Virus record (IMG/VR): IMGVR_UViG_3300033463_000086
Coordinates: 12,349 to 76,348 of that record
DNA: 64,000 nucleotides
DNA from: a virus
Lineage: Duplodnaviria > Caudoviricetes
Direction: 5' to 3' (one strand)
The translations under genes and the position numbers were made by a program. Below are positions 8,390-58,224 of the stretch, piece after piece; position 1 is the stretch's first letter, and the number at the start of each line of letters is the position of its first letter. Under the pieces are notes generated by a model. That model ran no database searches and was not told where the DNA came from. It saw only the letters and a program-made list of their open reading frames with translations.

Positions 8390-9924
8390 CTCGTGGTTGG
8401 TTTTGGTAGTTCAGCGAAGTTATGGACACTTAGAATGTGAGGCGTTCCACAAGCCAAGCATCCGTAAAGTTTAGCCTGTTGTCGTTCATCATAAGGAGAT
8501 TCACGTTTAAGTAATGCCGCAATTCTCCAAATGTTCTTGATTCGCTCTTCTGGTGTCTGATTGATAGCGTAAAGAGCTGAACAGTTATCAATCTTTCGTT
8601 TATCCTCAGAGAACGATGCCAACGTCAAATCCTCTGTATTAAAGCCTGTTGCGTTGGATTGTGTAGCCGTAACAACAAGGCATTTGAATATATCGGCATA
8701 AGCACGTATTGACCGCCACCTCTGATTGACTGCCTCGCGTGGGTCTCTTCCCTCGGTTGCCATAGCGTCAATGTAGTCTATAACAACCACGTCAGGATGT
8801 TCCCAACCGAGCTTCTTGCAGATGTTCTTTGTCAGCGTAACCAGACCGCTATACGTAAGAGAACCTAATGGAAACTGCTCAACGTACAGACTGCCTTTGT
8901 GCTTCTGATTGACCCAAGAATCACGCATGAGTTTGGCAATTTCAGGTGTCAGAATCGGGTTATGCACCTGACGATAGGACACAGCTTCCTTATATTCCTT
9001 GCAAGCCTTATCATCACATGGGATATATTCGTCGCTTGTGATAACAGGTCTATCGGGAATATCGTTCCATTCGTTGAGAAGACTGCCACTGCCTTTACGC
9101 TCAAAACAAGTGCCTTTTTGGTTCTTTACGCAATCCAAACAAGGTATGAATTGTTTATCCGCATATTCAGGTGAGGTGGAAGTCTTGGCATCACCGCAGA
9201 GGATTCGTTTGTTGACCTGATTTTTGGTAAGGTCTCCGCAACTGATGAAGAGGGTTTTGTTTCCCTGATTACGTGCTACTCTGGCTGTGTAAATGAGCAT
9301 GTGAGATTTGCCCACTTTACCACGACCCTCAAACACGACAAAGGAATTTCGGGTAAGCGTATTGTTCATAAGCCTACCTAATTCACCCTCGAAGGAAATC
9401 AGCCGTTCATCCTCTTGACGGAACAAATCATCAATCTCGGAATCAGTGGCTTGCAGAATATCGGTTGAATTGACTACGACAGGCTTAATCTCATCAACAG
9501 AGTTAAGGAGTTGTTTAGCCTCATCGAGTTTACCTGATTCTACTAATGCACTGGCTTCTTCCGAGGACAGCTTGATGATTTGAGCCTGAAAGTAGTTGTA
9601 AGCCTCGTCAATCTCAACCTGAATGTCGGTAATCGGTTCCTGATTGGCAAACGAAGACAAGACAATCTGTATCTCTGATGCCACTTCGGGTTTGATTTTA
9701 CCTAATGCAACCTGATTCTTAAAGACGCGCTCGAACTTATCTTCCGGTGCGGTGTGGAACTTATTGAAGAAGACAATGCAGATACGAGCCATGACAGAGT
9801 AGTACCGATTCGACAGTACGCCCTGTTTGTATTTATCCGCAAACTCTTCAAGGAACTGTGTGGAGTTGACCATATCATAAACGATACGTAACTCCAAATC
9901 AGCCGTAGCCTCAATTATTTCCAT
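8386..9924 (-). CDS. Replicative helicase, DnaB-like (SF4)
   Basis: Walker A EGRGKVGKS, VVVIDYID, VVTATQSN. Confidence 0.88.
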   Translation of the reverse strand: MEIIEATADLELRIVYDMVNSTQFLEEFADKYKQGVLSNRYYSVMARICIVFFNKFHTAPEDKFERVFKNQVALGKIKPEVASEIQIVLSSFANQEPITDIQVEIDEAYNYFQAQIIKLSSEEASALVESGKLDEAKQLLNSVDEIKPVVVNSTDILQATDSEIDDLFRQEDERLISFEGELGRLMNNTLTRNSFVVFEGRGKVGKSHMLIYTARVARNQGNKTLFISCGDLTKNQVNKRILCGDAKTSTSPEYADKQFIPCLDCVKNQKGTCFERKGSGSLLNEWNDIPDRPVITSDEYIPCDDKACKEYKEAVSYRQVHNPILTPEIAKLMRDSWVNQKHKGSLYVEQFPLGSLTYSGLVTLTKNICKKLGWEHPDVVVIDYIDAMATEGRDPREAVNQRWRSIRAYADIFKCLVVTATQSNATGFNTEDLTLASFSEDKRKIDNCSALYAINQTPEERIKNIWRIAALLKRESPYDERQQAKLYGCLACGTPHILSVHNFAELPKPTTR

Positions 9925-10526
9925 TCGTTCACAACCTCGTATTGGTTAGTCATTTCAGCAAGACGCATGGCAATCTTAGGCTGTGCAGGTAATTCCGTTG
10001 CAGTCATAAGAAGTCGTTTCCCTGCACCGTGAAGCGTCTTGATAATGTAGTAGACGTAATCGTAGGTATAATTGTTATCAACGTAGAAATCGTCAATAGC
10101 AATAACACCGCAATTCAGCATGTCGTTCACAATATCACGGTACGCTTCCGGCTTACATCTGAGGGTACACATAACGCTGGACCAATCGCAGAACTTGACC
10201 TTAAAGCCAGTAAGGATAGCCTCTTTCAGCATACCAACCATTTGATAAGTTTTCCCTACACCTGATTCACCATACCAAATAGTACCTTTAACGAACTCAA
10301 GAGAGCTGAGGTCATACATGGCTGTTGTAAGGTGTGCGGCTCTGTAAATGTTTGGTACGCCGAGTTTTATCATAAGCTGAATCATGGCAACGTTGCTCAT
10401 TTCCTGCATACGGTTGAGTTTATTTGCATTACAGCTCGGACACCACTGAGTAAGCTCTTCCACCTTGCCGTCAATGAGAAAGCGGAAATCAAGTAAAGGG
10501 GTATTACACTTCGGGCATTGGTTCAT
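9915..10526 (-). CDS. DnaC/IstB-like helicase loader ATPase
   Basis: N-terminal CxxC pairs, GESGVGKT, IAIDD; directly upstream of DnaB-like gene. Confidence 0.8.
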   Translation of the reverse strand: MNQCPKCNTPLLDFRFLIDGKVEELTQWCPSCNANKLNRMQEMSNVAMIQLMIKLGVPNIYRAAHLTTAMYDLSSLEFVKGTIWYGESGVGKTYQMVGMLKEAILTGFKVKFCDWSSVMCTLRCKPEAYRDIVNDMLNCGVIAIDDFYVDNNYTYDYVYYIIKTLHGAGKRLLMTATELPAQPKIAMRLAEMTNQYEVVNEWK

Positions 10527-27156: not shown

Positions 27157-27370
27157 GCGTATAATTGCTAATAAACCTACACAACTTGCTATAAATCGTG
27201 TAAGATAATGAGCGTTTTGGCATGGTTTTGTAAGTGTTTGATTACCAATACGTTATAACTTTGTAGTGCGTATATGGTAAATATATAGGGAAACAGGTAA
27301 CAATAACTTTGATATTATCATTGTTATAGTTTGGTGTTACTCTATTCTATTTGATTTATTTTTTCTATTT

Positions 27371-39780: not shown

Positions 39781-39838
39781 ATCTATGGTCTAACATTAAT
39801 CATATGGTTGTTAATGACGGTTTATCGAATGTAATAAA

Positions 39839-40179
39839 AAGTTAGTCCAGCCTAAGTCATTCAAAGCGCCACTATTAGAGTTTACATTTGTTTTTTACTC
39901 GTTTTTAATGATAGGTGTGTTGGTGTAATAGTGATGCGGTGTACTATAACAGTAATACACCTATGGTATAAATTTAATTAATACTGAGTGTCATTTTGGT
40001 GGCAGTTTGTATTTATGGTGGCACTGTGTCATTATAAAAACAGGGTGTAAGTGTTCTCCGCCCGACACCAGCATTTCATAACTTAGGCTGGACTAACTTA
40101 TGTAAATAACTGACACTCAAATATTTACAACTTACATAACAATAAATACACATAAATGACTTAGGCTCAACTAACTTTT
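39839..40179. repeat. 19-bp inverted repeat plus a third imperfect copy
   Basis: AAGTTAGTCCAGCCTAAGT 39839-39857; reverse complement 40081-40099; 21/23 copy 40157-40179. Confidence 0.85.
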
Positions 40180-40600
40180 GAAGTATGTTATGTTTGAATA
40201 TACCGACAAAGGCATAATCATAAAATGAAATGCAACGACGAATGAAATGCCAGCCCTCATTTATAACAATATTATATAGTGTGCTAAACTGTTGCCTATG
40301 CCGATGGTTATAACGATGAACATTCTCAATTCCATTCAATGAAATGTCACCATTATTATCTCATCCACATAACGACAACGACAACGATGAAGATGAACAT
40401 TGAAAACGATAGCGAATGAAATGCCAATGCCGACGTTTACATTCCATAACGACAAAGACAACGATGAAGATGCCGACAGATAAAGCCATACCGACGATTA
40501 TGCCGATGACTATATACATTCACATTCGTTCGTATGACCTAATAGTTCGTTCATAAAAATATCTTTAATAGAAAAATAATAATTTGCAAAAAGGCGGCAA

Positions 40601-40632
40601 AAAATAAAAAGGCCGCCGCGAGAGCGGCGGCC
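40601..40632 (-). terminator. Intrinsic terminator
   Basis: GGCCGCCGC-TCTC-GCGGCGGCC followed by TTTTTATTTT on the minus strand. Confidence 0.8.
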
Positions 40633-40644
40633 TTGTCGGCCTTG

Positions 40645-40908
40645 TTAGAGCTGGCCTTTTGTCAATCTCGGCAAGATTGTATTTTCAAAGATAAAGCTCG
40701 CAATCTCGGCGGCTAAATTGTCGGCCTCGGCTTCGGCCTCAGTTTTTGCCGCTTCGGCCTCGGCTTCGGCTATCGCCTCGGCTTCGGCCTTTGACAAAAG
40801 ATAGATAGTTAAATCTAACTCTTGTTTCAACTCTTCGAGCTTATCTTCGAGCTTGTCTTTGTGACGTCTAAGAGTAGAGATTCTTTGTGATAACTTGTCG
40901 TTTTTCAC
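40645..40908 (-). CDS. Coiled-coil protein with EAEA repeats, GTG start
   Basis: AAAGGA RBS, GTG start, no internal Met. Confidence 0.65.
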   Translation of the reverse strand: MKNDKLSQRISTLRRHKDKLEDKLEELKQELDLTIYLLSKAEAEAIAEAEAEAAKTEAEAEADNLAAEIASFIFENTILPRLTKGQL

Positions 40909-40945
40909 TTTTGTTTTTCCTTTGTTTTAAGTTGTTTGTTTTTGT

Positions 40946-41720
40946 GCTATTGTGCTTTATTGTGCCGCTTGTCGGTTAGGTTTTTTGTTTGTTGTTGTTT
41001 GTTGTTGGAGTTGTTTACTTTGCGGCGGCCTTTTCGGCCTTGTCGGCGGCTTCGGCGGCCTTTTCAATAGCCGCTTTTAAGCTGTTGTTGTATTTTTCTA
41101 TTGTTGCGGCTTCGGAGAGCGGCACAATAACAACAGCAAAGCCGAGGAGGCGGAGAATAAGAATAAACCTTTTCCAGTAGCCGTACTGACCGCAACTTGT
41201 TGCACCTGAGTCGATAAGCTGTTTTTGTGTATAGTCAACAGCGAGGGCCGAAGAGAGAGCAACTGCGGCTTGCCGCAAGTCGTTTTTTGTGACTTGTTTG
41301 TCTTTTGCGGCCTTTTCGGCCTTGTCGGCTTCGGCCTTTGTGCCTTCAGAAGCTTTCTTTGCGGCTTCGGCCTTTGCCTTTGCTTCGGCGGCGGCTTTGT
41401 CGGCCTTTGCGGCTTCGGCCTTTGCGGCCTTTGCGGCTTCGGCGGCTTTGCTTGCCTTGTCAATCTTACCGCTTGAGAGCAACTCAAGAGCGGCGGCGGC
41501 CTTGTCGGCGGCTTCGGCCTTTGCGGCTTCGGCCTTGACTTCGGCGGCCTTTGCTACTAACTCAAGAGCGGCGGCGGCCTTGTCGGCTTCGGCGGCCTTT
41601 GCTTTGAGCTTTTCGAGAGCGGAGAGCGGAGAGAGAGAACGAACGAACGAAAAGATTGTTTCAAACGTAATCACTTTTTGACTGCACTTTCTAACAAGCG
41701 GCACAATAAAGCACAATAGC
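40946..41720. repeat. Perfect 27-bp inverted repeat pair enclosing an ORF
   Basis: GCTATTGTGCTTTATTGTGCCGCTTGT 40946-40972 and exact reverse complement 41694-41720. Confidence 0.92.
41015..41674 (-). CDS. Ala/Lys/Glu-rich repetitive protein (histone H1/TolA-like composition); start uncertain (GTG 41674 or upstream)
   Basis: AAEADKAAAALEL repeats; open frame over 650 nt; no Met codon. Confidence 0.55.
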   Translation of the reverse strand: MITFETIFSFVRSLSPLSALEKLKAKAAEADKAAAALELVAKAAEVKAEAAKAEAADKAAAALELLSSGKIDKASKAAEAAKAAKAEAAKADKAAAEAKAKAEAAKKASEGTKAEADKAEKAAKDKQVTKNDLRQAAVALSSALAVDYTQKQLIDSGATSCGQYGYWKRFILILRLLGFAVVIVPLSEAATIEKYNNSLKAAIEKAAEAADKAEKAAAK

Positions 41721-42238
41721 GAGAGAGTTGTATATTTTTCAAAGAGCAACAGCCGAAAAACAAGCGGCTTCACAAAAGAAAAGATTTTTAGAGTTATTTT
41801 ATACAGTTTTTATTGAATAAATTATAACGTTTACACAATACACTATAAATAAGCACGTTACAGAATACAGCAATAAACTAATAGTTCGGCATTCCTAATT
41901 ACTTTGCCGCAAAGAAAAAGTCTTAACCTATTGATAATCAAAGAGTTGCACCAAATTAGATTTAGTAAGGCGGCTGGGACCCTATAGAGTACCTCACACA
42001 TACAATCCACATTTTCAAAACCCATCAATAAAATCACTTACTGCAATTCCCTATAAATAAGTAAATTACAGTATAGGATTATTTGCACCAGTTTATAAAT
42101 CAAGGATATATGTATTAAACTGTCAAAGAACAAAACAAATTGACTTATGACAAAACGCTACTGAGAACTTTGCAATAATGAGCGTAAAGTTTGCATTATC
42201 GTCTACACTTATTGATATTTATAGACACTTTGGCGCAT

Positions 42239-42339: not shown

Positions 42340-42609
42340 ATACTTGCTTCAAATACATCAAATATGACGCAATTCTTTATAAAATACGCTCGAAAATGCT
42401 ATATTTGATTGATTGTACGTTTGAAATTTAGTTGACATGTTGACCTAATTTCTAACAAAACAGCTATAATGATATAAAATTATGCACACAGAGGTAATGA
42501 CAACCATATGATTAATGTCTGTTTTTGGATTAATGTCTGTATAATAAAAAGACACGTACAGAAGCGGCAACTAATGTACGTGTCAAAGCAGAGGAGCCAA
42601 GATATGCGA

Positions 42610-44051: not shown

Positions 44052-44172
44052 TAATATAGCACCGTTTCCGAAAAAGTCAAGCGAAAAAGCAACATTTCTA
44101 CAAACTTTTTTCGATTTTCTTTTTCTTGATTTGGTGTAGTATCTAATATAGCACAGAATCTCCAAAAGTCAA
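44052..44172 (-). promoter_or_regulatory. Two tandem promoters for the TV-Pol-like gene
   Basis: TTGACT...TGCTATATT at 44052-44083 and 44145-44172. Confidence 0.65.
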
Positions 44173-44451
44173 ATCTAAATCAAAGAAATAAATTAGAATA
44201 TTTGATATATAATTGTCGAATCCTACATATACTATTTACCATATACGCACTACAAGTCACAACCTCTTCATTCTCAGCTACTTACAAAAACACCCTCAAT
44301 TTCTGCTTATTTTACCTATTTACATTGATTTATGAGCAGGTTTTAGACGCATAGATATTACCGTTCGGGCATATTTTCGGTTTTCATTCGGTAAAATTTC
44401 AAAAATGTTACCGTTCGGGAATAAAAAATAAAAATCGAAAAAAGTTATAAA

Positions 44452-44521: not shown

Positions 44522-44875
44522 ATGCAAAACATACCAATCGAGTTGAACAGACACTATCGGCATGATGAGATTTCCATACAGTGCGGCGAATCTGCATACA
44601 CTTTGGCATTAGAAAACCAAGATGATATTCGCAGACGGTTTGTTCGTAATGAAAACGTCCACTGGTATGTAACTGCAAAGCGTCGTGGGAAAACTACATT
44701 GAGTTATATCGTTGTTCATAAGAAAGACATAACAACTTCTCAGAATGCAGCGAAGCGTACTATCTTTATGAGTTATGAAGAAGCACGTGAAATTGCTAAC
44801 GAACTTATGCACTCTGAAATGTTTTATGCGGTAAATATTGTCGAATGCTATGACAGGGTGGGTGTATGCCTCTAA
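44522..44875 (+). CDS. Hypothetical protein
   Basis: AGGAGG RBS; overlaps terL start. Confidence 0.7.
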   Translation: MQNIPIELNRHYRHDEISIQCGESAYTLALENQDDIRRRFVRNENVHWYVTAKRRGKTTLSYIVVHKKDITTSQNAAKRTIFMSYEEAREIANELMHSEMFYAVNIVECYDRVGVCL

Positions 44876-46164
44876 AACTGACAGAAAAACAAAAATATGG
44901 CATGAAATTGCTGAATGACCCTAAATACACGAGAATTGCGTTTACTGGTGGTTCTCGTGCTGGTAAGTCTGTTGCATTTATGGAATTTCTGATGCAGAGA
45001 GCATTTCAATTCCCCGGTTCCAGACAACTCATATGCCGCAGAGCCTTGGTTGATGCAAGACGAGCTATTTGGGAAGACACCTTGAAGAAATACTTGACGG
45101 ACCAGATACCGGAATCAGAATATACGTTAATGAAATCTGAAATGAGAGTGGTATTCAAGAATGGGTCCACGATTGAGTTGGGTGGTTTGGATGGCGAGGA
45201 CCAGTTGCAGAAAATACTTGGTACTGAGTATCTTACAATATGGCTGAATGAAGCTACTGAAATGAGGTTTGAGGCTGTTACGATTCTGATTACTCGTCTG
45301 GCTCAATCCGTAAAGGACACCACAGGCACGTTTACAGGGATAAATAAGCTGATTGCTGACGCTAACCCCTCTTCCCCTCGTAATTGGGTCAAAAAGTGGT
45401 TTATTGACAACGTAGACCCCACCACAAGACCGCCAAAGAAGCTGAAAGACGCAGATAAGTTCGTTCACCTGCACTTTACCCCCTACGATAACGCTGAAAA
45501 CCTACCTCCGGGATATATCGAACAGCTTGACGCACTTCCTTACGAGATGCGTGAAAGAATGCTCAAAGGTAACTGGATTGGTGGTGAAGGTCAGATATTC
45601 AAAGAGTTCAATGCGGAGAAACACTTGATTGCTCCGTTTGAAATACCGAAAACATGGGAAAAGGTGAGAGCCATTGACTTTGGTTATAATCACCCTTGCG
45701 CCATTTTATATACGGCTTACGATTATTCAACAGATACTATATATGTATATGATGAATATAAGGAATCCGGTAAGACGATTGATGAGATTGCAAATTACAT
45801 GAACAGCGTGGAGCAGAAGAGGCACGAGTTCTATGATTGCACGTGGTCAGACCATGACAAATCAGACCGCGCTTTCTTGGCAAAACATGATATTGTCACA
45901 AGGGCGGCGAAAAAGTCTGTTCTGGACGGTATCAATGCAGTACGTCAGCGTCTTTCTGAGATAAGCCCCAAGACACACAAACCTAAACTGCTCATATTCA
46001 ACAACTTAGATGCCCTGATTGACGAAATGTACAGTTATGAATGGCATCAGTCCGAATCGGAGGTTATGGATAAGGACGCACCAGTCAAAATCAATGACGA
46101 CCTTGTTGATACATTGAGATATATTGTTTATGGTAGAGATAAAGACAACGGAATTTCATTATAA
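44866..46164 (+). CDS. terL: Terminase large subunit (PBSX-like)
   Basis: TGGSRAGKS, WLNEATE, IDFGYNHP, DDLVDTLRY. Confidence 0.95.
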   Translation: MPLKLTEKQKYGMKLLNDPKYTRIAFTGGSRAGKSVAFMEFLMQRAFQFPGSRQLICRRALVDARRAIWEDTLKKYLTDQIPESEYTLMKSEMRVVFKNGSTIELGGLDGEDQLQKILGTEYLTIWLNEATEMRFEAVTILITRLAQSVKDTTGTFTGINKLIADANPSSPRNWVKKWFIDNVDPTTRPPKKLKDADKFVHLHFTPYDNAENLPPGYIEQLDALPYEMRERMLKGNWIGGEGQIFKEFNAEKHLIAPFEIPKTWEKVRAIDFGYNHPCAILYTAYDYSTDTIYVYDEYKESGKTIDEIANYMNSVEQKRHEFYDCTWSDHDKSDRAFLAKHDIVTRAAKKSVLDGINAVRQRLSEISPKTHKPKLLIFNNLDALIDEMYSYEWHQSESEVMDKDAPVKINDDLVDTLRYIVYGRDKDNGISL

Positions 46165-46175
46165 GGAATTTGAAT

Positions 46176-47804
46176 ATGGATAGCACAATTACTGTAAACA
46201 CATCCACTGACGCACAGACCCCGAACGAGCGAATCTTCAATCGGGTCAATGCCTATTATCTTGCAACAAGAAATACTTGGCGAAAAGCTCTAAAGGCATA
46301 TAATGGCGGCACGGGTTATTTGAAGGAAACGCTTAGGAAACACCCATCCGAAACAGATGAAGAGTTTCAGGAGCGTGTGGACAACTCTTATAATATCAAC
46401 TTAATCAAATACAGCGTCAAGGAGTTCGGCAATTACATTTTCTCCAAGACACCGCGAAGAAACAACGCGGATGAGGAAATCGTAAAGGACTTTGACCGCC
46501 AACAGAAGCAGGTGAACGAAGTTATGTGGAATCTGTTTCTGTATCATAACCTTTGCGGTCTCACTTGGGCTTTGGTTGATATGCCGCAATTCAGAGGCAA
46601 CGAGATTGACATAAAGACCAAACAGGAGCAGAAGATTCGTCCGTGGTGTAAGGTACTTTCTCCGCTTGCCGTTCCTGACTGGTGCTTTGATAAGTTCGGC
46701 AACCTTGAATGGATTATTATTGAGGAGTTCGTTGTTGAGAAGGACAATCCGTTTGCGGAACCTAAACTCATAAAGAAACGCACCCTCTATACGAAGACCT
46801 ACTATCAGGTGTTCTCTGCTATTATTGCCAGCCCGACTGCATCTGTAAAAAACAATGAGATTCGGGTAGGCAGAAAGATTAGGAACACTATTGGTGTGGT
46901 TCCTGTCATTCCGTATAGCGACCTTCTGTTTGATAAGGACTTCAATACTCCTGAGATTGCTGACATCCTTACAATTTATGATGCGATTCTGGCAGGTGAA
47001 TCCGAGCTTCTCACCAATATCCTGAAGCAGACATACGGACAGCTTGTACTTCCCATGTCTTCGCACTCTATGGTGAGCAAAGTCAAGGCTCGTCTGTCTG
47101 AGGCTGGAATCGACCCAAATTCTCCGGCTACCACAGCAATCATAACTCAGGAAATCGGTATGGAGCTGTCTCGTACAAAGGCAATTTACGAAGACGAGGG
47201 CGAGAAACAGATTGCCCGGTACATCCAACCAGCCGGAGCTACCACGGAATCCATTATCAACCACAATGACCGTCTGCTTGCTCTTACAATGAAGATTACA
47301 GGCTTCCTTGTCGGTGTTTCCACTACACAGCGTGAATCGGCAGACAGCAAGGCGGTGGATAATGCTTCTCTTGCCGCACAGCTCATACGTATTGCAAGCC
47401 GACTTGAGGAGCTTGAGCTGAATATCTGGAAGCTGTTCAATATGTTTGACCCATCTATTCAGGTCCCGAAGGTTGTTTACAGCAAGGACTATGATATTCA
47501 CGAGTTCAAGGCTGTTATTGCTGGTATTGTTGAGCTTGCAAACGTCAATGGCGGCGACAATTTCAAACAGCAGGTACTTAGGACTGCGGTTCATGCTATG
47601 GACAGTATTCATCGGATTCCTGACGAAACATACGAACAGATTATGGATGATATTGAAAACGGCAAAACATCCGCACTTCCTCCTACTTTTTCCGGCAAGG
47701 CAGATTACATTTCAGATACCTCCGGGAGCAGACCTGACAGTGTAAGAGCCAAGACGGATTATGACGGCTCGAACGAAAAAATAGGAAAAACTGAAAAAAT
47801 TTAA
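46176..47804 (+). CDS. Portal protein
   Basis: Follows terL; ~540 aa; YLKETLRKHPSE...RVDNS, DFDR, PLAVPDW, ESADSK. Confidence 0.85.
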   Translation: MDSTITVNTSTDAQTPNERIFNRVNAYYLATRNTWRKALKAYNGGTGYLKETLRKHPSETDEEFQERVDNSYNINLIKYSVKEFGNYIFSKTPRRNNADEEIVKDFDRQQKQVNEVMWNLFLYHNLCGLTWALVDMPQFRGNEIDIKTKQEQKIRPWCKVLSPLAVPDWCFDKFGNLEWIIIEEFVVEKDNPFAEPKLIKKRTLYTKTYYQVFSAIIASPTASVKNNEIRVGRKIRNTIGVVPVIPYSDLLFDKDFNTPEIADILTIYDAILAGESELLTNILKQTYGQLVLPMSSHSMVSKVKARLSEAGIDPNSPATTAIITQEIGMELSRTKAIYEDEGEKQIARYIQPAGATTESIINHNDRLLALTMKITGFLVGVSTTQRESADSKAVDNASLAAQLIRIASRLEELELNIWKLFNMFDPSIQVPKVVYSKDYDIHEFKAVIAGIVELANVNGGDNFKQQVLRTAVHAMDSIHRIPDETYEQIMDDIENGKTSALPPTFSGKADYISDTSGSRPDSVRAKTDYDGSNEKIGKTEKI

Positions 47805-53523: not shown

Positions 53524-53846
53524 TACCCGAATTTCTTGACGTTGAGTACATGTGCATCGTCATAATGAGGGTCTTTTCCGCCTACACAATGAATCTGCTA
53601 CTGGAACTGCCTTTCTGTCATGTATTGGCTTTATACCACATGGCAGAAAAGGCAGTATCTTTATTTAGGTTTGACATTTTAATTGGCAACGCTTCTCTGC
53701 ATGATGAACAAATGGCAAAAGGGTTACAGAGAGTTGCCAAAACTGCTACAATAGCTGACCGCCAGAAGATGAAGGAATTGACATCTAAACGGAATAGAGA
53801 GGCAATCATGAAGAGAGCCAGAGAGAAGAGGTTAGTCCATGCCTAA
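53505..53846 (+). CDS. Frameshifted GT extension of the tail assembly chaperone
   Basis: A AAA AAA at 53505-53511; -1 frame open through 53846. Confidence 0.75.
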   Translation, partial: KKNDGVVPEFLDVEYMCIVIMRVFSAYTMNLLLELPFCHVLALYHMAEKAVSLFRFDILIGNASLHDEQMAKGLQRVAKTATIADRQKMKELTSKRNREAIMKRAREKRLVHA

Positions 53847-56800
53847 TATTCTTGACCTGTCTGCGCGTTTAAGTGCTGACGTTAGACCTTTTGTAAATTC
53901 TATGGCGTCTGGGGCTAATGCGTCCCATACGACATTTCAGAATATAGCGCAAGCCGCAACAATGTACCTTGGGGCGCGTGGTCTCTTAGGTACGCTTAAT
54001 CGTGCAAACCAAGCCTCAATGGAATTTGGGCAGAGCTTGGCTGACGCATCCGCAATCTCCACCCTCAGTGTGAAAGAGATTGGGGACGCTCTTATGTCTC
54101 TGGATAACGTTTTCGGTCGTGTCTCCAAGGCGTCTCAGTCCATGTACCGCATCCTTTCGTCCGGCTTTAGTCAACTGGATGCAAGTCAGTTGGTGCAGTT
54201 TCAGAAAGCAGTTGGTATTTCTGCTAAGGTTATTCGTGCTGACCTGTATAACACAGCAGACGTCATGACCACTATCGCCAATGCTTACCAACTGAATATC
54301 AAGGAAATCGAAAAATTACAGGACTGGTTCTACATTACAGTCCGTGAAGGTAAAGCTCAGGGTCAGGATTTGGCTCGTACCCTCGGTCTTGTCATTAACA
54401 GTGCGTCCGAGGCTGGTGTGTCCCTGAATGAGTTAGGCGCGGCTATTGCTGTGCTTTCTCGTACTCAGTCTGTTTCGCAGTCCATGATTGGCTTGAACCA
54501 GATGCTAAACGCCTTCATCAAACCGACCCTTCAAGCCCAAGCCGCTGCACGTAAATGGGGTATCGAAATCAGTGCTACGGCGTTACAGGAAAAAGGTCTT
54601 ACCAATATCCTGACAGAGCTGAATCAGAAGGTTGGCGGTAATGTTGAAGCACTTGAAAAGATGTTCGGTAACATTCGTGCCGGACGCGCTATCCTTTCTC
54701 TTACTGGTAAGCAGTTCCATAACTACCTGAACGTGGTTGACATGTATAACCACGAGGCTGGTGCTGGCATGGAGGCGTTTGAAAAGCAGATTGATACTGT
54801 TCAGAACGCTTATGAGAGATTACAGGCACAGCAAGAGAAAACGCTTATCACTGTTGGTGATGATTGGGGTAACGTCAGGAAAGCGATTTACAATACTGGT
54901 GAAGTGCTTCTTAAAGCATTTTCTGATACAAGCTCGATTGCAAGATGGAGTGTGTACCTTACTGGTATCAATTTGGCTGTAAAAAATATTATAGCAGTCA
55001 TAAATAATTTGAGGGATTCAGTCAACAGCGTAACGCGCTCTGTTGATAGGATGACTGCTTCATTCACAAGAGCCTCTGCTACGTCTTATGGTATCGGTAA
55101 TGGTGTGATTCGTGCTGACATAGCAAAATTACGTAAAAAAGCGGCAAATGCGAATCTTGCTCTGACTGGTGATTTCAAACCACTTCTGGAAAGAAATGAC
55201 CAGATTCTTCGTGGTGCAACTCCGTGGTTTAATCTGAAAAACCAACATGGTATTGCACAGAAAAATAACCCATATTCTGTTATAGCGCAGAATACCCTCA
55301 GCCCATACGTTCGTGAGCATCAGGTTATAGCGCATAATATTGCCAGAAACTTTATGAAGCAGTATTTTGTGAAGTACGAAGACATTACTGACCCGGTTAC
55401 TGGCAAGGTAGTTGATTGGAAAGTCAAAAACGCTGAAACAGGCTTCAAGTATAAAGCAACGCATAATCAACTTGAAAAACAGCTTACAAAGAGTGTGTTC
55501 ATACAGAATGAAAAGAGTATGAACGTGCTTAGGAAGTATATAAACTCTGCGCGTCAGACAAAAATTTCTGCTGAAAGTGCTGAGAAGAGGTTGATAAATG
55601 AATCCAATATGCGTGTCGGCAATTTTTATGCACAGCCACACGGTTTCAGAACAGGTACAATCAACCGTCTTTACAGGAATCAGAGTTCTCTTGACCGCCT
55701 TGCTGATATGAAGCAAGCTCGTTTTGCCAAGAGCCATCGTATAATGAACTGGATGGGCATGAATCCTTACGACAGGGGTTCTGGTATCGGTCGTTGGTGG
55801 ATGCAACATTCTATGGGTCGTTCCTTCCAGTATCGTGGTAAAACGCTTGTGCAAGAACCGCATTGGTTCTTCAAGGCTGGTAACAAGATTGGTTCTGGAA
55901 TAGGTAAAGAGCTTGGCAAATTTACAGGTTCCATAGGTAAAACTATGGGTGTTGCCTTTAATGCTGTTGCTACTGTTGGTCTGATGAAGTTTGCTTGGGA
56001 TTTTGGGAAGAAAATCGGTGAAAGCATAGGTGAATCCCTGAATCTGAAAGACACAGAATTTTTCCAGTGGTTAGGTCGCGCAGTCACAACAGGCGATTGG
56101 ATGGGTCTTGGACCATCTACAGCACAGGTTGAAGCACGAAACATTCACTCTAACGCACAAGCAAGAAACAATACGTTCAACAAGCTGATTGATGATATGC
56201 GTAAGGCTAAAATCTCTCCTGATAAGATTTTGACATATCAGGAACAGATGGCAGAACAGTACATCAAGGCTATGGGTAAAGACCTCAAATCCGCACAAGA
56301 AGCAACTGAGGCTATGAATGCCATTATTGACAATATCGTTCAGGACCTCAAGGATTACAGAGAAACAGTCAATGCGCGTACTCAGCTTGAAGAGGCGTAT
56401 CGTGCGCTTCGTCCTGTTGACCGTGAAAAAGAACTTAATACCGCAGAGAAGTCGTACATCAGGAGTTATATGTCCAGAGAGGGTATGGCTATGAACGGTG
56501 TTACACGCGGTCTGTTTGAAGAATTTATGAAGAACCCTCAAGGTTTCACAAAAGCATTTAGTAAGTTCAACGCTTTTGAGTATAATGAAGCTGGTCTGAA
56601 GCAGTATTTTGATGAACTCGGTATTGACGCAAGTAATATCGCCTTGAATAATAGACTTTTGCTGAATGAGGGAATCAAGGAAGTTCTTTCGGTGTCCAAT
56701 CTTATGCGACAGGACAAGGCAGTACAAAAGGCGAATCAGCAGGTCCAGCGGAATAAGGTAATCAATGCAAGCAGCCGAGCCGCCGCCAACTCCCTGTCTG

Positions 56801-58224
56801 CATTTAACAAAGCCCTTGATAGACGCAGTAAGGATGTTGAGTATAATGATGTTCAGTCTGAGTATTTTGACAATCTTGCTGAACTTGATAATAGGACAGG
56901 GCTTGGCTCTGCGCGTCTGAATAAGGCGATTGAACAGGAAAATGAGGCACGAAACACCCTTGAATTTCTCACTGCAAGACGTACACAAGCTGAGAGTGAG
57001 ATGTATAAGGACATTGAACGTCAGCGTAAGGAAAAGGGTTCGCTTTCACAGGCTGAACTTACACTGATTCAGAACAGGTGGCGTGATGAGGCGTTCATTT
57101 CTATGGACAAGCAGATTATTGAGGCACAGAAATCGGTAATCAAGGCATCTACTACTACACAGAATGAGCGTGACAGGCAGAAGAAGAATCGGGTGAAAGA
57201 AATATCCGATGTACTTGAACATCAGCTTGAAACAAGTGCTGTCGGTTCGCTTTCTATGCTGTATGAACGCGCACAAAGCCAGCTAAAGAAGAATCTTGGT
57301 GATTATAAGCTGAAGACTACACCGGAAGAGGCTCGTGATGCTGAAAAGGCGTTGCAGAATATCTACATAAAAGGCATGAAGAGTCGTTTTGAGAACCTTG
57401 GTCAGAGCATGAGTGGTATTTCTGTTGAACAAGCCAGCGGTGCAATCAGCAGAAAAACAGCTATCGCCCAGCAGAAAGAAATCATTGGCGCACAGTGGAG
57501 GCTTTATGCTGAGGCTCTTCGTGGCTTAGACCCAACACGTGATATGGAGGCTATACGCGAGTTCAGACAGGCGGCTGACAGCGCAGCTGAAAGTTGGAAT
57601 AGACTGGCTGTAAGCGAGATGGCTCTGTCTATCGAGAACATTACAAAAGGTCTTGATACTGTTGAACTTGCAAGAGCGCAACACAGAATAACTGATAGAA
57701 CAGCAAACAAGAGGCAGATGGCGATTTACCGTAATATGCGTAAGGAAATCGTCAAACAGATGCGTAATTATGCTGAAGGTTCTGAGCAGTATGAGACACA
57801 CCGTAGACAGCTACATGATGTTGACATGAATATCGCTCGTCTGAAGGATGCGATACAGAATGACGTAAATGAGGCGCGTCAGGGTTTGCTTTCTGCATTT
57901 AGTGACGTAATCAGCAGTAATCTGCAAGGAGACAGACTTTCCAACTATGGTCTGTATCACGCGACAAACCTGCTTGCTCGTCTTGCTCCGGCTCTCAACA
58001 TCCAACAGAAGGGTGTAAGTCTTTCTGCTGTGCTTGCGAACGCCAATGCTCGTTATAGTGGTTCTACACCAGATACTTCAAGAGCCATGAGACAGCAACA
58101 GAGGCTTTCGACAATCATGGATTCCTATATCGCATCGAAGCAGTATCAGGATGCAGGTATCGGTAAGAACGTCCAGACTATCGTAACAATCATGGGTAAA
58201 CGTACACCCTTATTCTTAAATTGA
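53839..58224 (+). CDS. Tape measure protein (TP901-like core)
   Basis: 1461 aa, helical; TVREGKAQGQDLA, NSASEAGVSLNELGAAIA, MFGNIRAG. Confidence 0.92.
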   Translation: MPNILDLSARLSADVRPFVNSMASGANASHTTFQNIAQAATMYLGARGLLGTLNRANQASMEFGQSLADASAISTLSVKEIGDALMSLDNVFGRVSKASQSMYRILSSGFSQLDASQLVQFQKAVGISAKVIRADLYNTADVMTTIANAYQLNIKEIEKLQDWFYITVREGKAQGQDLARTLGLVINSASEAGVSLNELGAAIAVLSRTQSVSQSMIGLNQMLNAFIKPTLQAQAAARKWGIEISATALQEKGLTNILTELNQKVGGNVEALEKMFGNIRAGRAILSLTGKQFHNYLNVVDMYNHEAGAGMEAFEKQIDTVQNAYERLQAQQEKTLITVGDDWGNVRKAIYNTGEVLLKAFSDTSSIARWSVYLTGINLAVKNIIAVINNLRDSVNSVTRSVDRMTASFTRASATSYGIGNGVIRADIAKLRKKAANANLALTGDFKPLLERNDQILRGATPWFNLKNQHGIAQKNNPYSVIAQNTLSPYVREHQVIAHNIARNFMKQYFVKYEDITDPVTGKVVDWKVKNAETGFKYKATHNQLEKQLTKSVFIQNEKSMNVLRKYINSARQTKISAESAEKRLINESNMRVGNFYAQPHGFRTGTINRLYRNQSSLDRLADMKQARFAKSHRIMNWMGMNPYDRGSGIGRWWMQHSMGRSFQYRGKTLVQEPHWFFKAGNKIGSGIGKELGKFTGSIGKTMGVAFNAVATVGLMKFAWDFGKKIGESIGESLNLKDTEFFQWLGRAVTTGDWMGLGPSTAQVEARNIHSNAQARNNTFNKLIDDMRKAKISPDKILTYQEQMAEQYIKAMGKDLKSAQEATEAMNAIIDNIVQDLKDYRETVNARTQLEEAYRALRPVDREKELNTAEKSYIRSYMSREGMAMNGVTRGLFEEFMKNPQGFTKAFSKFNAFEYNEAGLKQYFDELGIDASNIALNNRLLLNEGIKEVLSVSNLMRQDKAVQKANQQVQRNKVINASSRAAANSLSAFNKALDRRSKDVEYNDVQSEYFDNLAELDNRTGLGSARLNKAIEQENEARNTLEFLTARRTQAESEMYKDIERQRKEKGSLSQAELTLIQNRWRDEAFISMDKQIIEAQKSVIKASTTTQNERDRQKKNRVKEISDVLEHQLETSAVGSLSMLYERAQSQLKKNLGDYKLKTTPEEARDAEKALQNIYIKGMKSRFENLGQSMSGISVEQASGAISRKTAIAQQKEIIGAQWRLYAEALRGLDPTRDMEAIREFRQAADSAAESWNRLAVSEMALSIENITKGLDTVELARAQHRITDRTANKRQMAIYRNMRKEIVKQMRNYAEGSEQYETHRRQLHDVDMNIARLKDAIQNDVNEARQGLLSAFSDVISSNLQGDRLSNYGLYHATNLLARLAPALNIQQKGVSLSAVLANANARYSGSTPDTSRAMRQQQRLSTIMDSYIASKQYQDAGIGKNVQTIVTIMGKRTPLFLN

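Follow-up and report, generated by a model that had tools for sequence, protein, structure and literature searches.

An exact 27-bp inverted repeat around one gene of a rumen phage and its probable role as a long-range mRNA helix

Bacterial RNase III typically accepts perfect RNA duplexes of 27 bp as substrates and cuts them largely irrespective of their sequence. In the phages T7 and lambda, the host RNase III cuts early polycistronic mRNAs between cistrons; the leftover stem protects the 3′ ends, and cleavage activates translation in some cases. These T7 and lambda sites are local hairpins with internal loops. Base pairing over long distances within the mRNAs of bacteria and phages is difficult to detect and has only recently begun to be mapped (e.g., by end sequencing in Bacillus subtilis). 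RNase III of B. subtilis acts on long-range intramolecular mRNA duplexes of 10–36 bp with at most 505 nt between the cleavage sites, and both strands are cut to leave a 2-nt overhang (PMC11780869). The Coxiella burnetii 23S IVS is a 444-nt element with an ORF, and the 28-bp terminal stem that encloses it is cut by RNase III mid-stem, by which the element is excised (PMC4990558). Type I toxin mRNAs (hok, aapA1, and aapA3) have 5′ and 3′ ends that pair with each other over the whole coding region; while the message is being transcribed, its Shine-Dalgarno (SD) sequence is hidden by local hairpins, and nucleolytic processing switches the state of the message (PMC6733600; PMC5416894).

The locus described here is an inverted repeat that brackets a single gene (gene A) of a tailed phage. 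It resembles the RNase III processing stems of 16S and 23S rRNA and the 23S IVS (PMC4990558; PMC6582327), in which distant segments form a stem of about 26–28 bp with hundreds to thousands of nucleotides between them. Unlike those stems, it belongs to a translated phage mRNA cistron within an operon, its stem is perfect, and its cleavage is a prediction. The mRNA duplexes of B. subtilis (PMC11780869) are similar in that 10–36 bp form across hundreds of nucleotides. However, those duplexes are not described as exact brackets of a whole ORF, whereas the arms here lie just outside the start and stop codons in every relative. Furthermore, the loop spans 481–721 nt among the loci compared and its closure is conserved by covariation; in the phage studied here, the loop (721 nt) exceeds the largest distance mapped in B. 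subtilis (505 nt). In comparison with the local T7 and lambda hairpins, the duplex is free of mismatches and its two halves are 721 nt apart. The likeness to type I toxin mRNAs lies in the pairing of message ends across a coding region, but the enclosed protein has 150–220 residues, unlike the small toxins. Moreover, the SD sequence here lies outside the helix, so that the helix does not sequester it as the long-distance pairing of the toxin mRNAs does. In form, the closest counterparts appear to be the rRNA/IVS processing stems and the long-range RNase III mRNA duplexes. The arrangement is most likely a new example of this known kind of RNA processing stem and, as such, a putative RNase III substrate.

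Gene A lies in a phage genome of 76,348 bp, which is an IMG/VR record with direct terminal repeats and an estimated completeness of 100%. A stretch of 64,000 nt of this genome (hereafter the window) was analyzed, and positions refer to this stretch unless another contig is named. Genes typical of tailed phages are present, including those for the large terminase (44866–46164), portal (46170–47804), and tape measure (53839–58224). The inverted repeat is found where genes are sparse, with leftward early genes on one side and rightward packaging genes on the other, near the switch in gene orientation and the GC-skew minimum. The leftward gene block is itself bracketed by another perfect inverted repeat of 23 nt, which is intergenic and has its two halves 16.9 kb apart (27261–27283 and 44233–44255).

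The two arms of the inverted repeat (27 nt each, separated by 721 nt; Table 1) are exact reverse complements of each other. This confirms the perfect 27-bp repeat reported in an initial annotation of this DNA, with 100% complementarity between the arms. The arm pair is the longest perfect inverted repeat of the window. When up to three mismatches were allowed, the 27-mer occurred at only two sites within the window, i.e., the arms themselves, and no match was found in 100 dinucleotide shuffles. In the complete phage genome, the 27-mer is present solely at the two arm positions. Two further details of the initial annotation also hold. The unit GCACAATA occurs twice in each arm with a period of 10 nt, and a partial copy of an arm is present inside the ORF. 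This copy has 13 nt, which exceeds the maximum of 11 reached in shuffles of the interior (n = 200), and it could act as an alternative pairing partner for the 3′ arm.

The proteins of the gene A family share an N-terminal hydrophobic helix, a long helical hairpin rich in Ala, Lys, and Glu, and, at the C terminus, a small conserved domain containing the motif NDL.Q.A...YTQ...GA...GQ(F/Y)GY.KR. An AlphaFold model of the gene A product (mean pLDDT of 87) likewise consists of a long helical hairpin and a small C-terminal domain. Searches of Pfam, PHROG, PDB sequences, and Foldseek gave no significant match to gene A, and no DNA-binding fold was detected in the PDB-sequence and Foldseek searches. 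PspA/Vipp1 and similar proteins were rejected as weak coiled-coil look-alikes (E > 0.2). None of these results connects the gene A product with the arms. The start codon of gene A is most likely the GTG at 41674, which aligns with the Met-Glu-Thr-Ile-Thr-Phe N terminus of the homologs. With this start, the 5′ arm is located in the leader, 19 nt upstream of the coding sequence. This corrects a 252-codon reading of the ORF, which would put the 5′ arm within the coding sequence.

Upstream of the arms is a promoter-like site and downstream is a terminator-like hairpin on the same strand, which places both arms in one predicted transcription unit. The promoter-like segment is duplicated, with a second copy at 42070–42099. 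The relatives of this phage have a conserved extended −10 promoter of the sigma-70 type at the equivalent place and GGAG ribosome-binding sites (RBSs), and a small hydrophobic peptide gene takes the place of the 87-codon downstream ORF. In the leader, the arms of a small hairpin vary among relatives yet remain complementary (TAGTC/GACTA and GTAAAGA/TCTTTAC), and the box that follows this hairpin is conserved as GCTCTTTGA(A/C)AA in the leaders of L003–L017. Two other promoter candidates were rejected. A scan for a Bacteroides-type promoter (TTTG ... TAnnTTTG) was uninformative, with the relatives showing the sigma-70-type extended −10 instead. The TTGAAA box conserved upstream of the arm might have belonged to a promoter with transcription starting inside the arm, but no conserved −10 element lies behind this box. 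Finally, a different box, ATCGAAAAAAGTT, recurs beside promoters and precedes the gene A promoter in relatives. In the window, it is found as a 22-nt inverted pair (44103–44124 and 44425–44446) between a 409-codon gene and the packaging operon. This box is possibly a promoter-associated site of these phages.

Table 1. Positions of the inverted repeat arms and of associated features in the predicted gene A transcription unit.
Feature	Position in window	Strand	Remarks
Promoter-like TTTATA-17-TATAAT	41821-41849	-	10/12 consensus matches; 5′ arm follows about 95 nt downstream
Small leader hairpin AGCCG/CGGCT	41751-41769	-	Shared with relatives; just upstream of the 5′ arm region
Conserved leader box GCTCTTTGAAAAA	41735-41747	-	Follows the small hairpin, just upstream of the 5′ arm
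5′ arm of the putative long-range helix	41694-41720	-	In the mRNA leader; ends 19 nt before the GTG of gene A
Gene A, 219 codons, probable GTG start at 41674	41015-41674	-	Ala/Lys/Glu-rich; start placed by homolog alignment
Partial 5′ arm copy of 13 nt	41118-41130	-	Inside gene A; not conserved in relatives
3′ arm of the putative helix	40946-40972	-	Starts 42 nt past the gene A stop; ends 37 nt before the next GTG
Downstream ORF, 87 codons, GTG start	40645-40908	-	Ala/Glu-rich coiled coil; same unit as gene A
Intrinsic terminator-like hairpin	40609-40634	-	11 pairs, 9 of them G-C, then a T-run; closes the unit

For comparison, 12 distinct loci with eight arm types were collected from at least nine rumen metagenome samples; the comparative counts cover these loci, and the distant homologs P0005–P0017 come from a protein search only. 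Scans of viral and genome contigs with alignments of the distant homologs returned no new locus, and a megablast search of the region against GenBank phages returned no match. All 12 loci have an inverted repeat of 19–34 nt flanking the gene A homolog. On either side of the region, the sister contig L003 shows about 97% identity, whereas the segment 39981–41994 has diverged, and L003 carries its own perfect 29-nt inverted repeat, with a different sequence, around a homologous gene of 158 codons. The 5′ arms of different relatives have 12–24 of about 30 positions in common, and arm sequences differ by 20–50%, yet 93–100% of the positions pair between the two arms of a locus. In comparison, the 20 nt just outside or inside the arms are 15–40% complementary, which is the chance level. 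The initial annotation had named a lack of conserved complementarity in relatives as evidence against its proposals; complementarity is retained in 12/12 loci despite the drift of the arms. The arms were compared in seven pairs of loci, which overlap and have lineages in common; of 48 substitutions on the 5′ side, 43 are accompanied by a pair-preserving change on the 3′ side. The induced alignment has double-sided changes in 28/34 helix columns, which is an upper estimate, since the most distant arms could not be aligned with certainty. When applied to the entire cassette, MAFFT misaligned the arms, and this result was left out of the pair counting; RNAalifold found no consensus structure on a MAFFT alignment of the leaders. 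From a reading of the alignment, we attribute the latter result to matched indels in arm and leader that shift the register. Folds of individual sequences with shuffles, together with direct counts of pairs, were used in place of RNAalifold.

The few imperfect positions and the placement of the arms are also informative. Among six independent arm mismatches, five are G·U or U·G in the gene-sense RNA, none is A·C, which would be a wobble in the antisense strand, and one is U·U. A strand-neutral process is expected to split the five transitions evenly, and the observed split of five to zero has a one-sided p-value of about 0.03. At every locus, the arms are outside the ORF: 14–19 nt separate the 5′ arm from the start codon, and 16–43 nt separate the stop codon from the 3′ arm, whose far end lies a few nucleotides upstream of the RBS of the next gene. 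Most arm variants have the core TATTGTG in common. The doubled GCACAATA motif is private to the window phage.

Several other sequence features were observed in and around the unit. A stretch of 1338 nt (40552–41890) is free of ATG and CAT on either strand, and all start codons in it are GTG. This stretch coincides with the promoter-to-terminator unit; under a local first-order Markov model, about 19 occurrences would be expected. CCC/GGG and CCA/TGG are strongly depleted there as well, indicating that the k-mer repertoire of the unit is generally restricted. The corresponding unit of the sister phage has 10 ATG and 4 CAT. The non-coding stretch to the left of the unit contains a 24–29-nt unit similar to AGTTAGTCCAGCCTAAGT in both orientations (39839–39867 and 40071–40099), and several copies of this unit are found in L003 around 9654–10155. 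In addition, a perfect 19-nt inverted repeat, ACATTAATCATATGGTTGT (39793–39811 and 42500–42518, with 2688 nt between the copies), surrounds the variable region in its entirety. The sister phage has an identical 19-mer (L003:10234-10252), and a more distant relative has three tandem copies that are 36 nt apart (L015:3264-3354). This 19-mer looks like an iteron or operator site associated with an origin or a regulator. Outside the window (G000:C1:2826-3317; L022), the phage encodes a reverse transcriptase of 345 codons (PF00078, E = 7e-18). Upstream of this gene is a pair of imperfect direct repeats of 122 nt (88% identity), which are 334 nt apart. The reverse transcriptase and repeats are beside tail genes and probably represent a diversity-generating retroelement. 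A retron msr-msd was considered for the arms and rejected, since this only reverse transcriptase match is about 50 kb away and the arms enclose a conserved protein-coding gene.

When the predicted transcript of 1220 nt is folded, all 27 pairs are present in both the minimum free energy (MFE) and the centroid structures, and a fold of 855 nt also retains all 27 pairs. The energy of the arm duplex is −47.4 kcal/mol in the window phage and ranges from −27 to −48 kcal/mol in the relatives. An Rfam search found no match at the arms and two weak, sub-threshold matches near the terminator. RNase III processing stems are duplexes of at least about 20 bp on one transcript; the duplex here is of that size on one transcript whose boundaries are a consensus prediction, and compensating changes accompany it in 12/12 loci. 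We consider it probable, at roughly 0.7, that the arms form a long-range helix in the minus-strand mRNA that closes gene A into a loop and serves as an RNase III substrate, with effects on stability and translation. A stem in the minus-strand mRNA was one of three options in the initial annotation, and this part is favored by the compensating changes, the G·U pairs in the sense strand, the arm placement, and the presence of both arms in one unit; the RNase III cleavage and release of the message that were coupled to it may follow from such a duplex, and the circularization also proposed there is the more speculative outcome. Compensating change by itself could also be explained by concerted evolution of DNA repeats. 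The sense-strand bias toward G·U among the six mismatches and the position of the arms, just outside the ORF and before the RBS of the next gene, argue for RNA rather than DNA.

Among the readings at the DNA level, the initial annotation had offered an invertible cassette, in which the arms are recombination sites and gene A is flipped relative to an external promoter. A perfect inverted repeat of fitting length does flank a discrete segment, and the recombinase required may be encoded by the host. Within the phage, the lack of a recombinase noted earlier for the window extends to the complete genome, since a six-frame search for serine and tyrosine recombinases (PF00239 and PF00589) found neither type while the controls were positive. 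Moreover, with the conserved promoter upstream and the next gene downstream as references, the orientation of gene A is identical in 12/12 assemblies from at least nine samples, although minor orientations could be missed in assemblies. The single orientation and the lack of a recombinase in the phage genome both favor RNA over DNA. In addition, recombinase sites should keep their sequence, whereas the arms drift by 20–50%, and the G·U bias in the sense strand would have no reason at the DNA level. We therefore regard inversion as very improbable. Slightly less credit still is given to a small MITE- or IVS-like element, mobile or selfish, whose terminal inverted repeats would be the arms and whose passenger would be gene A. 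A single ORF between perfect end repeats fits this form, and divergence from the sister phage, which is otherwise 97% identical, is confined to the segment 39981–41994. However, the borders of this divergent block do not coincide with the arms, as it runs about 1 kb past the left one and 270 bp past the right one. This mismatch of borders, the lack of a target-site duplication at the arm ends, and the single copy in the genome again favor RNA, and no transposase was found. Furthermore, the location of the cassette does not change among the relatives, as it always lies between the promoter and the downstream RBS, and the arms co-drift with the gene.

The initial annotation had also suggested paired operators or an injection-pause signal. 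More broadly, the arms may be paired binding sites for the gene A product or another protein, acting as operators or in DNA looping and evolving in concert. The common TATTGTG core, the two GCACAATA units per arm at a spacing of one helical turn in the window phage, and the small conserved C-terminal domain of gene A are compatible with this explanation. Against it, the doubled motif is private to the window phage, gene A has no detectable DNA-binding fold, and the motif has seven matches in the window versus 3.2 expected, of which five are at the locus, i.e., there is no wider regulon. Outside the core the sequence varies, but the arms of any one locus are identical over 27–34 nt, which selection on binding sites does not explain. 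Operators and iterons conserve the sequence of the site, and the 12–24 common positions out of about 30 do not fit such conservation. The nearby 19-mer, which is identical across relatives, behaves as a protein site should, whereas the arms show the opposite pattern, in that the sequence drifts and the pairing stays; this is a further reason to prefer RNA. Given the private motif and the free drift of the arms, binding sites or a pause signal are unlikely. The lowest probability is assigned to a structure in single-stranded DNA of sense polarity that acts in replication or packaging. Since G·T is the most tolerated mismatch in DNA, the strand bias is compatible with such a structure, as is the gene-poor locus near the orientation switch and the GC-skew minimum, but the placement of the arms at ORF boundaries and RBSs and the anti-RBS hairpin of the relatives (see below) make sense only for mRNA.

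If the arms form an mRNA helix, its action may be envisaged as follows. Once gene A has been fully transcribed, the 3′ arm past the stop codon would pair with the 5′ arm before the RBS, and the resulting 27-bp duplex would close the 660-nt coding sequence into a loop. Because the arms are outside the ORF, a translating ribosome would not melt the helix. An RNase III gene was not found in the phage genome, so the enzyme that cuts the stem is assumed to be that of the host. Cleavage across the stem would excise the gene A message from the operon transcript and remove the leader. The excised message would have its ends joined by a short helix stub and may thereby resist exonucleases, and the downstream cistron would acquire a new 5′ end. 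Helix formation in vivo, its cleavage by RNase III, and any effect on stability and translation are deduced from the comparisons and folds above.

Six of the arm types (L003, L005, L013, L006, L015, and L017) have an additional layer, a local hairpin (−13.6 to −19.5 kcal/mol) in which the 5′ arm covers the SD sequence and the start codon. In this hairpin, the arm core pairs with the GGAG SD sequence and the spacer, and a UUUCC stretch pairs with AUGGAAA. The z-scores relative to shuffles range from −2.9 to −5.1 in these six relatives, and the spacer between SD and AUG covaries with the arm core (TACACAAT/ATTGTGTA, TATCAA/TTGATA, and AACGCA/TGCGTT). In partition-function folds, the mean unpaired probability from the SD sequence to the start codon increases from 0.11–0.27 without the 3′ arm to 0.47–0.55 with it. 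These models predict that the 5′ arm acts as an anti-RBS in the six relatives and that the 3′ arm after the stop codon acts as its displacer. Formation or cutting of the long helix would then unmask translation, and cleavage would fix the RBS in its open state. In toxin mRNAs, long-distance pairing hides the SD sequence and trimming of the 3′ end activates the message, and the predicted order of events in the six relatives is the reverse of this. The masking layer is absent in the window phage and in the L016 and L010 types, such that only the long-range helix is universal across the loci. In the window phage, a local anti-RBS hairpin is not significant (z = +1.35), and the predicted accessibility of the RBS is unchanged by the 3′ arm (0.37 versus 0.44). 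Therefore, a translational switch applies to the relatives only. A more speculative extension, which we hold only tentatively and consider rather doubtful, is that these rumen phages possess a three-part mRNA device in which the RBS is masked, the post-stop arm is the displacer, and RNase III locks the activation, with the masking having decayed in the window phage. If so, the gene would be translated only once its transcript is complete, and cleavage would make the activation irreversible. RNase III would also excise a stable, end-paired message and reset the downstream cistron. Such a device would be the mirror image of the long-distance lock of type I toxins.

The locus provides a clean case of natural covariation, in which a perfect helix of about 30 bp brackets one gene and is represented by eight distinct arm sequences that have no Rfam family. 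It may serve as a simple system for studying the effect of whole-cistron excision, or of the pairing of message ends, on phage gene expression. In addition, the relatives offer a testable example of translation that would be unmasked by an element located after the stop codon. For phages in general, the findings suggest that some of the inverted repeats that flank genes are RNA structures rather than sites of DNA inversion or the ends of transposons.
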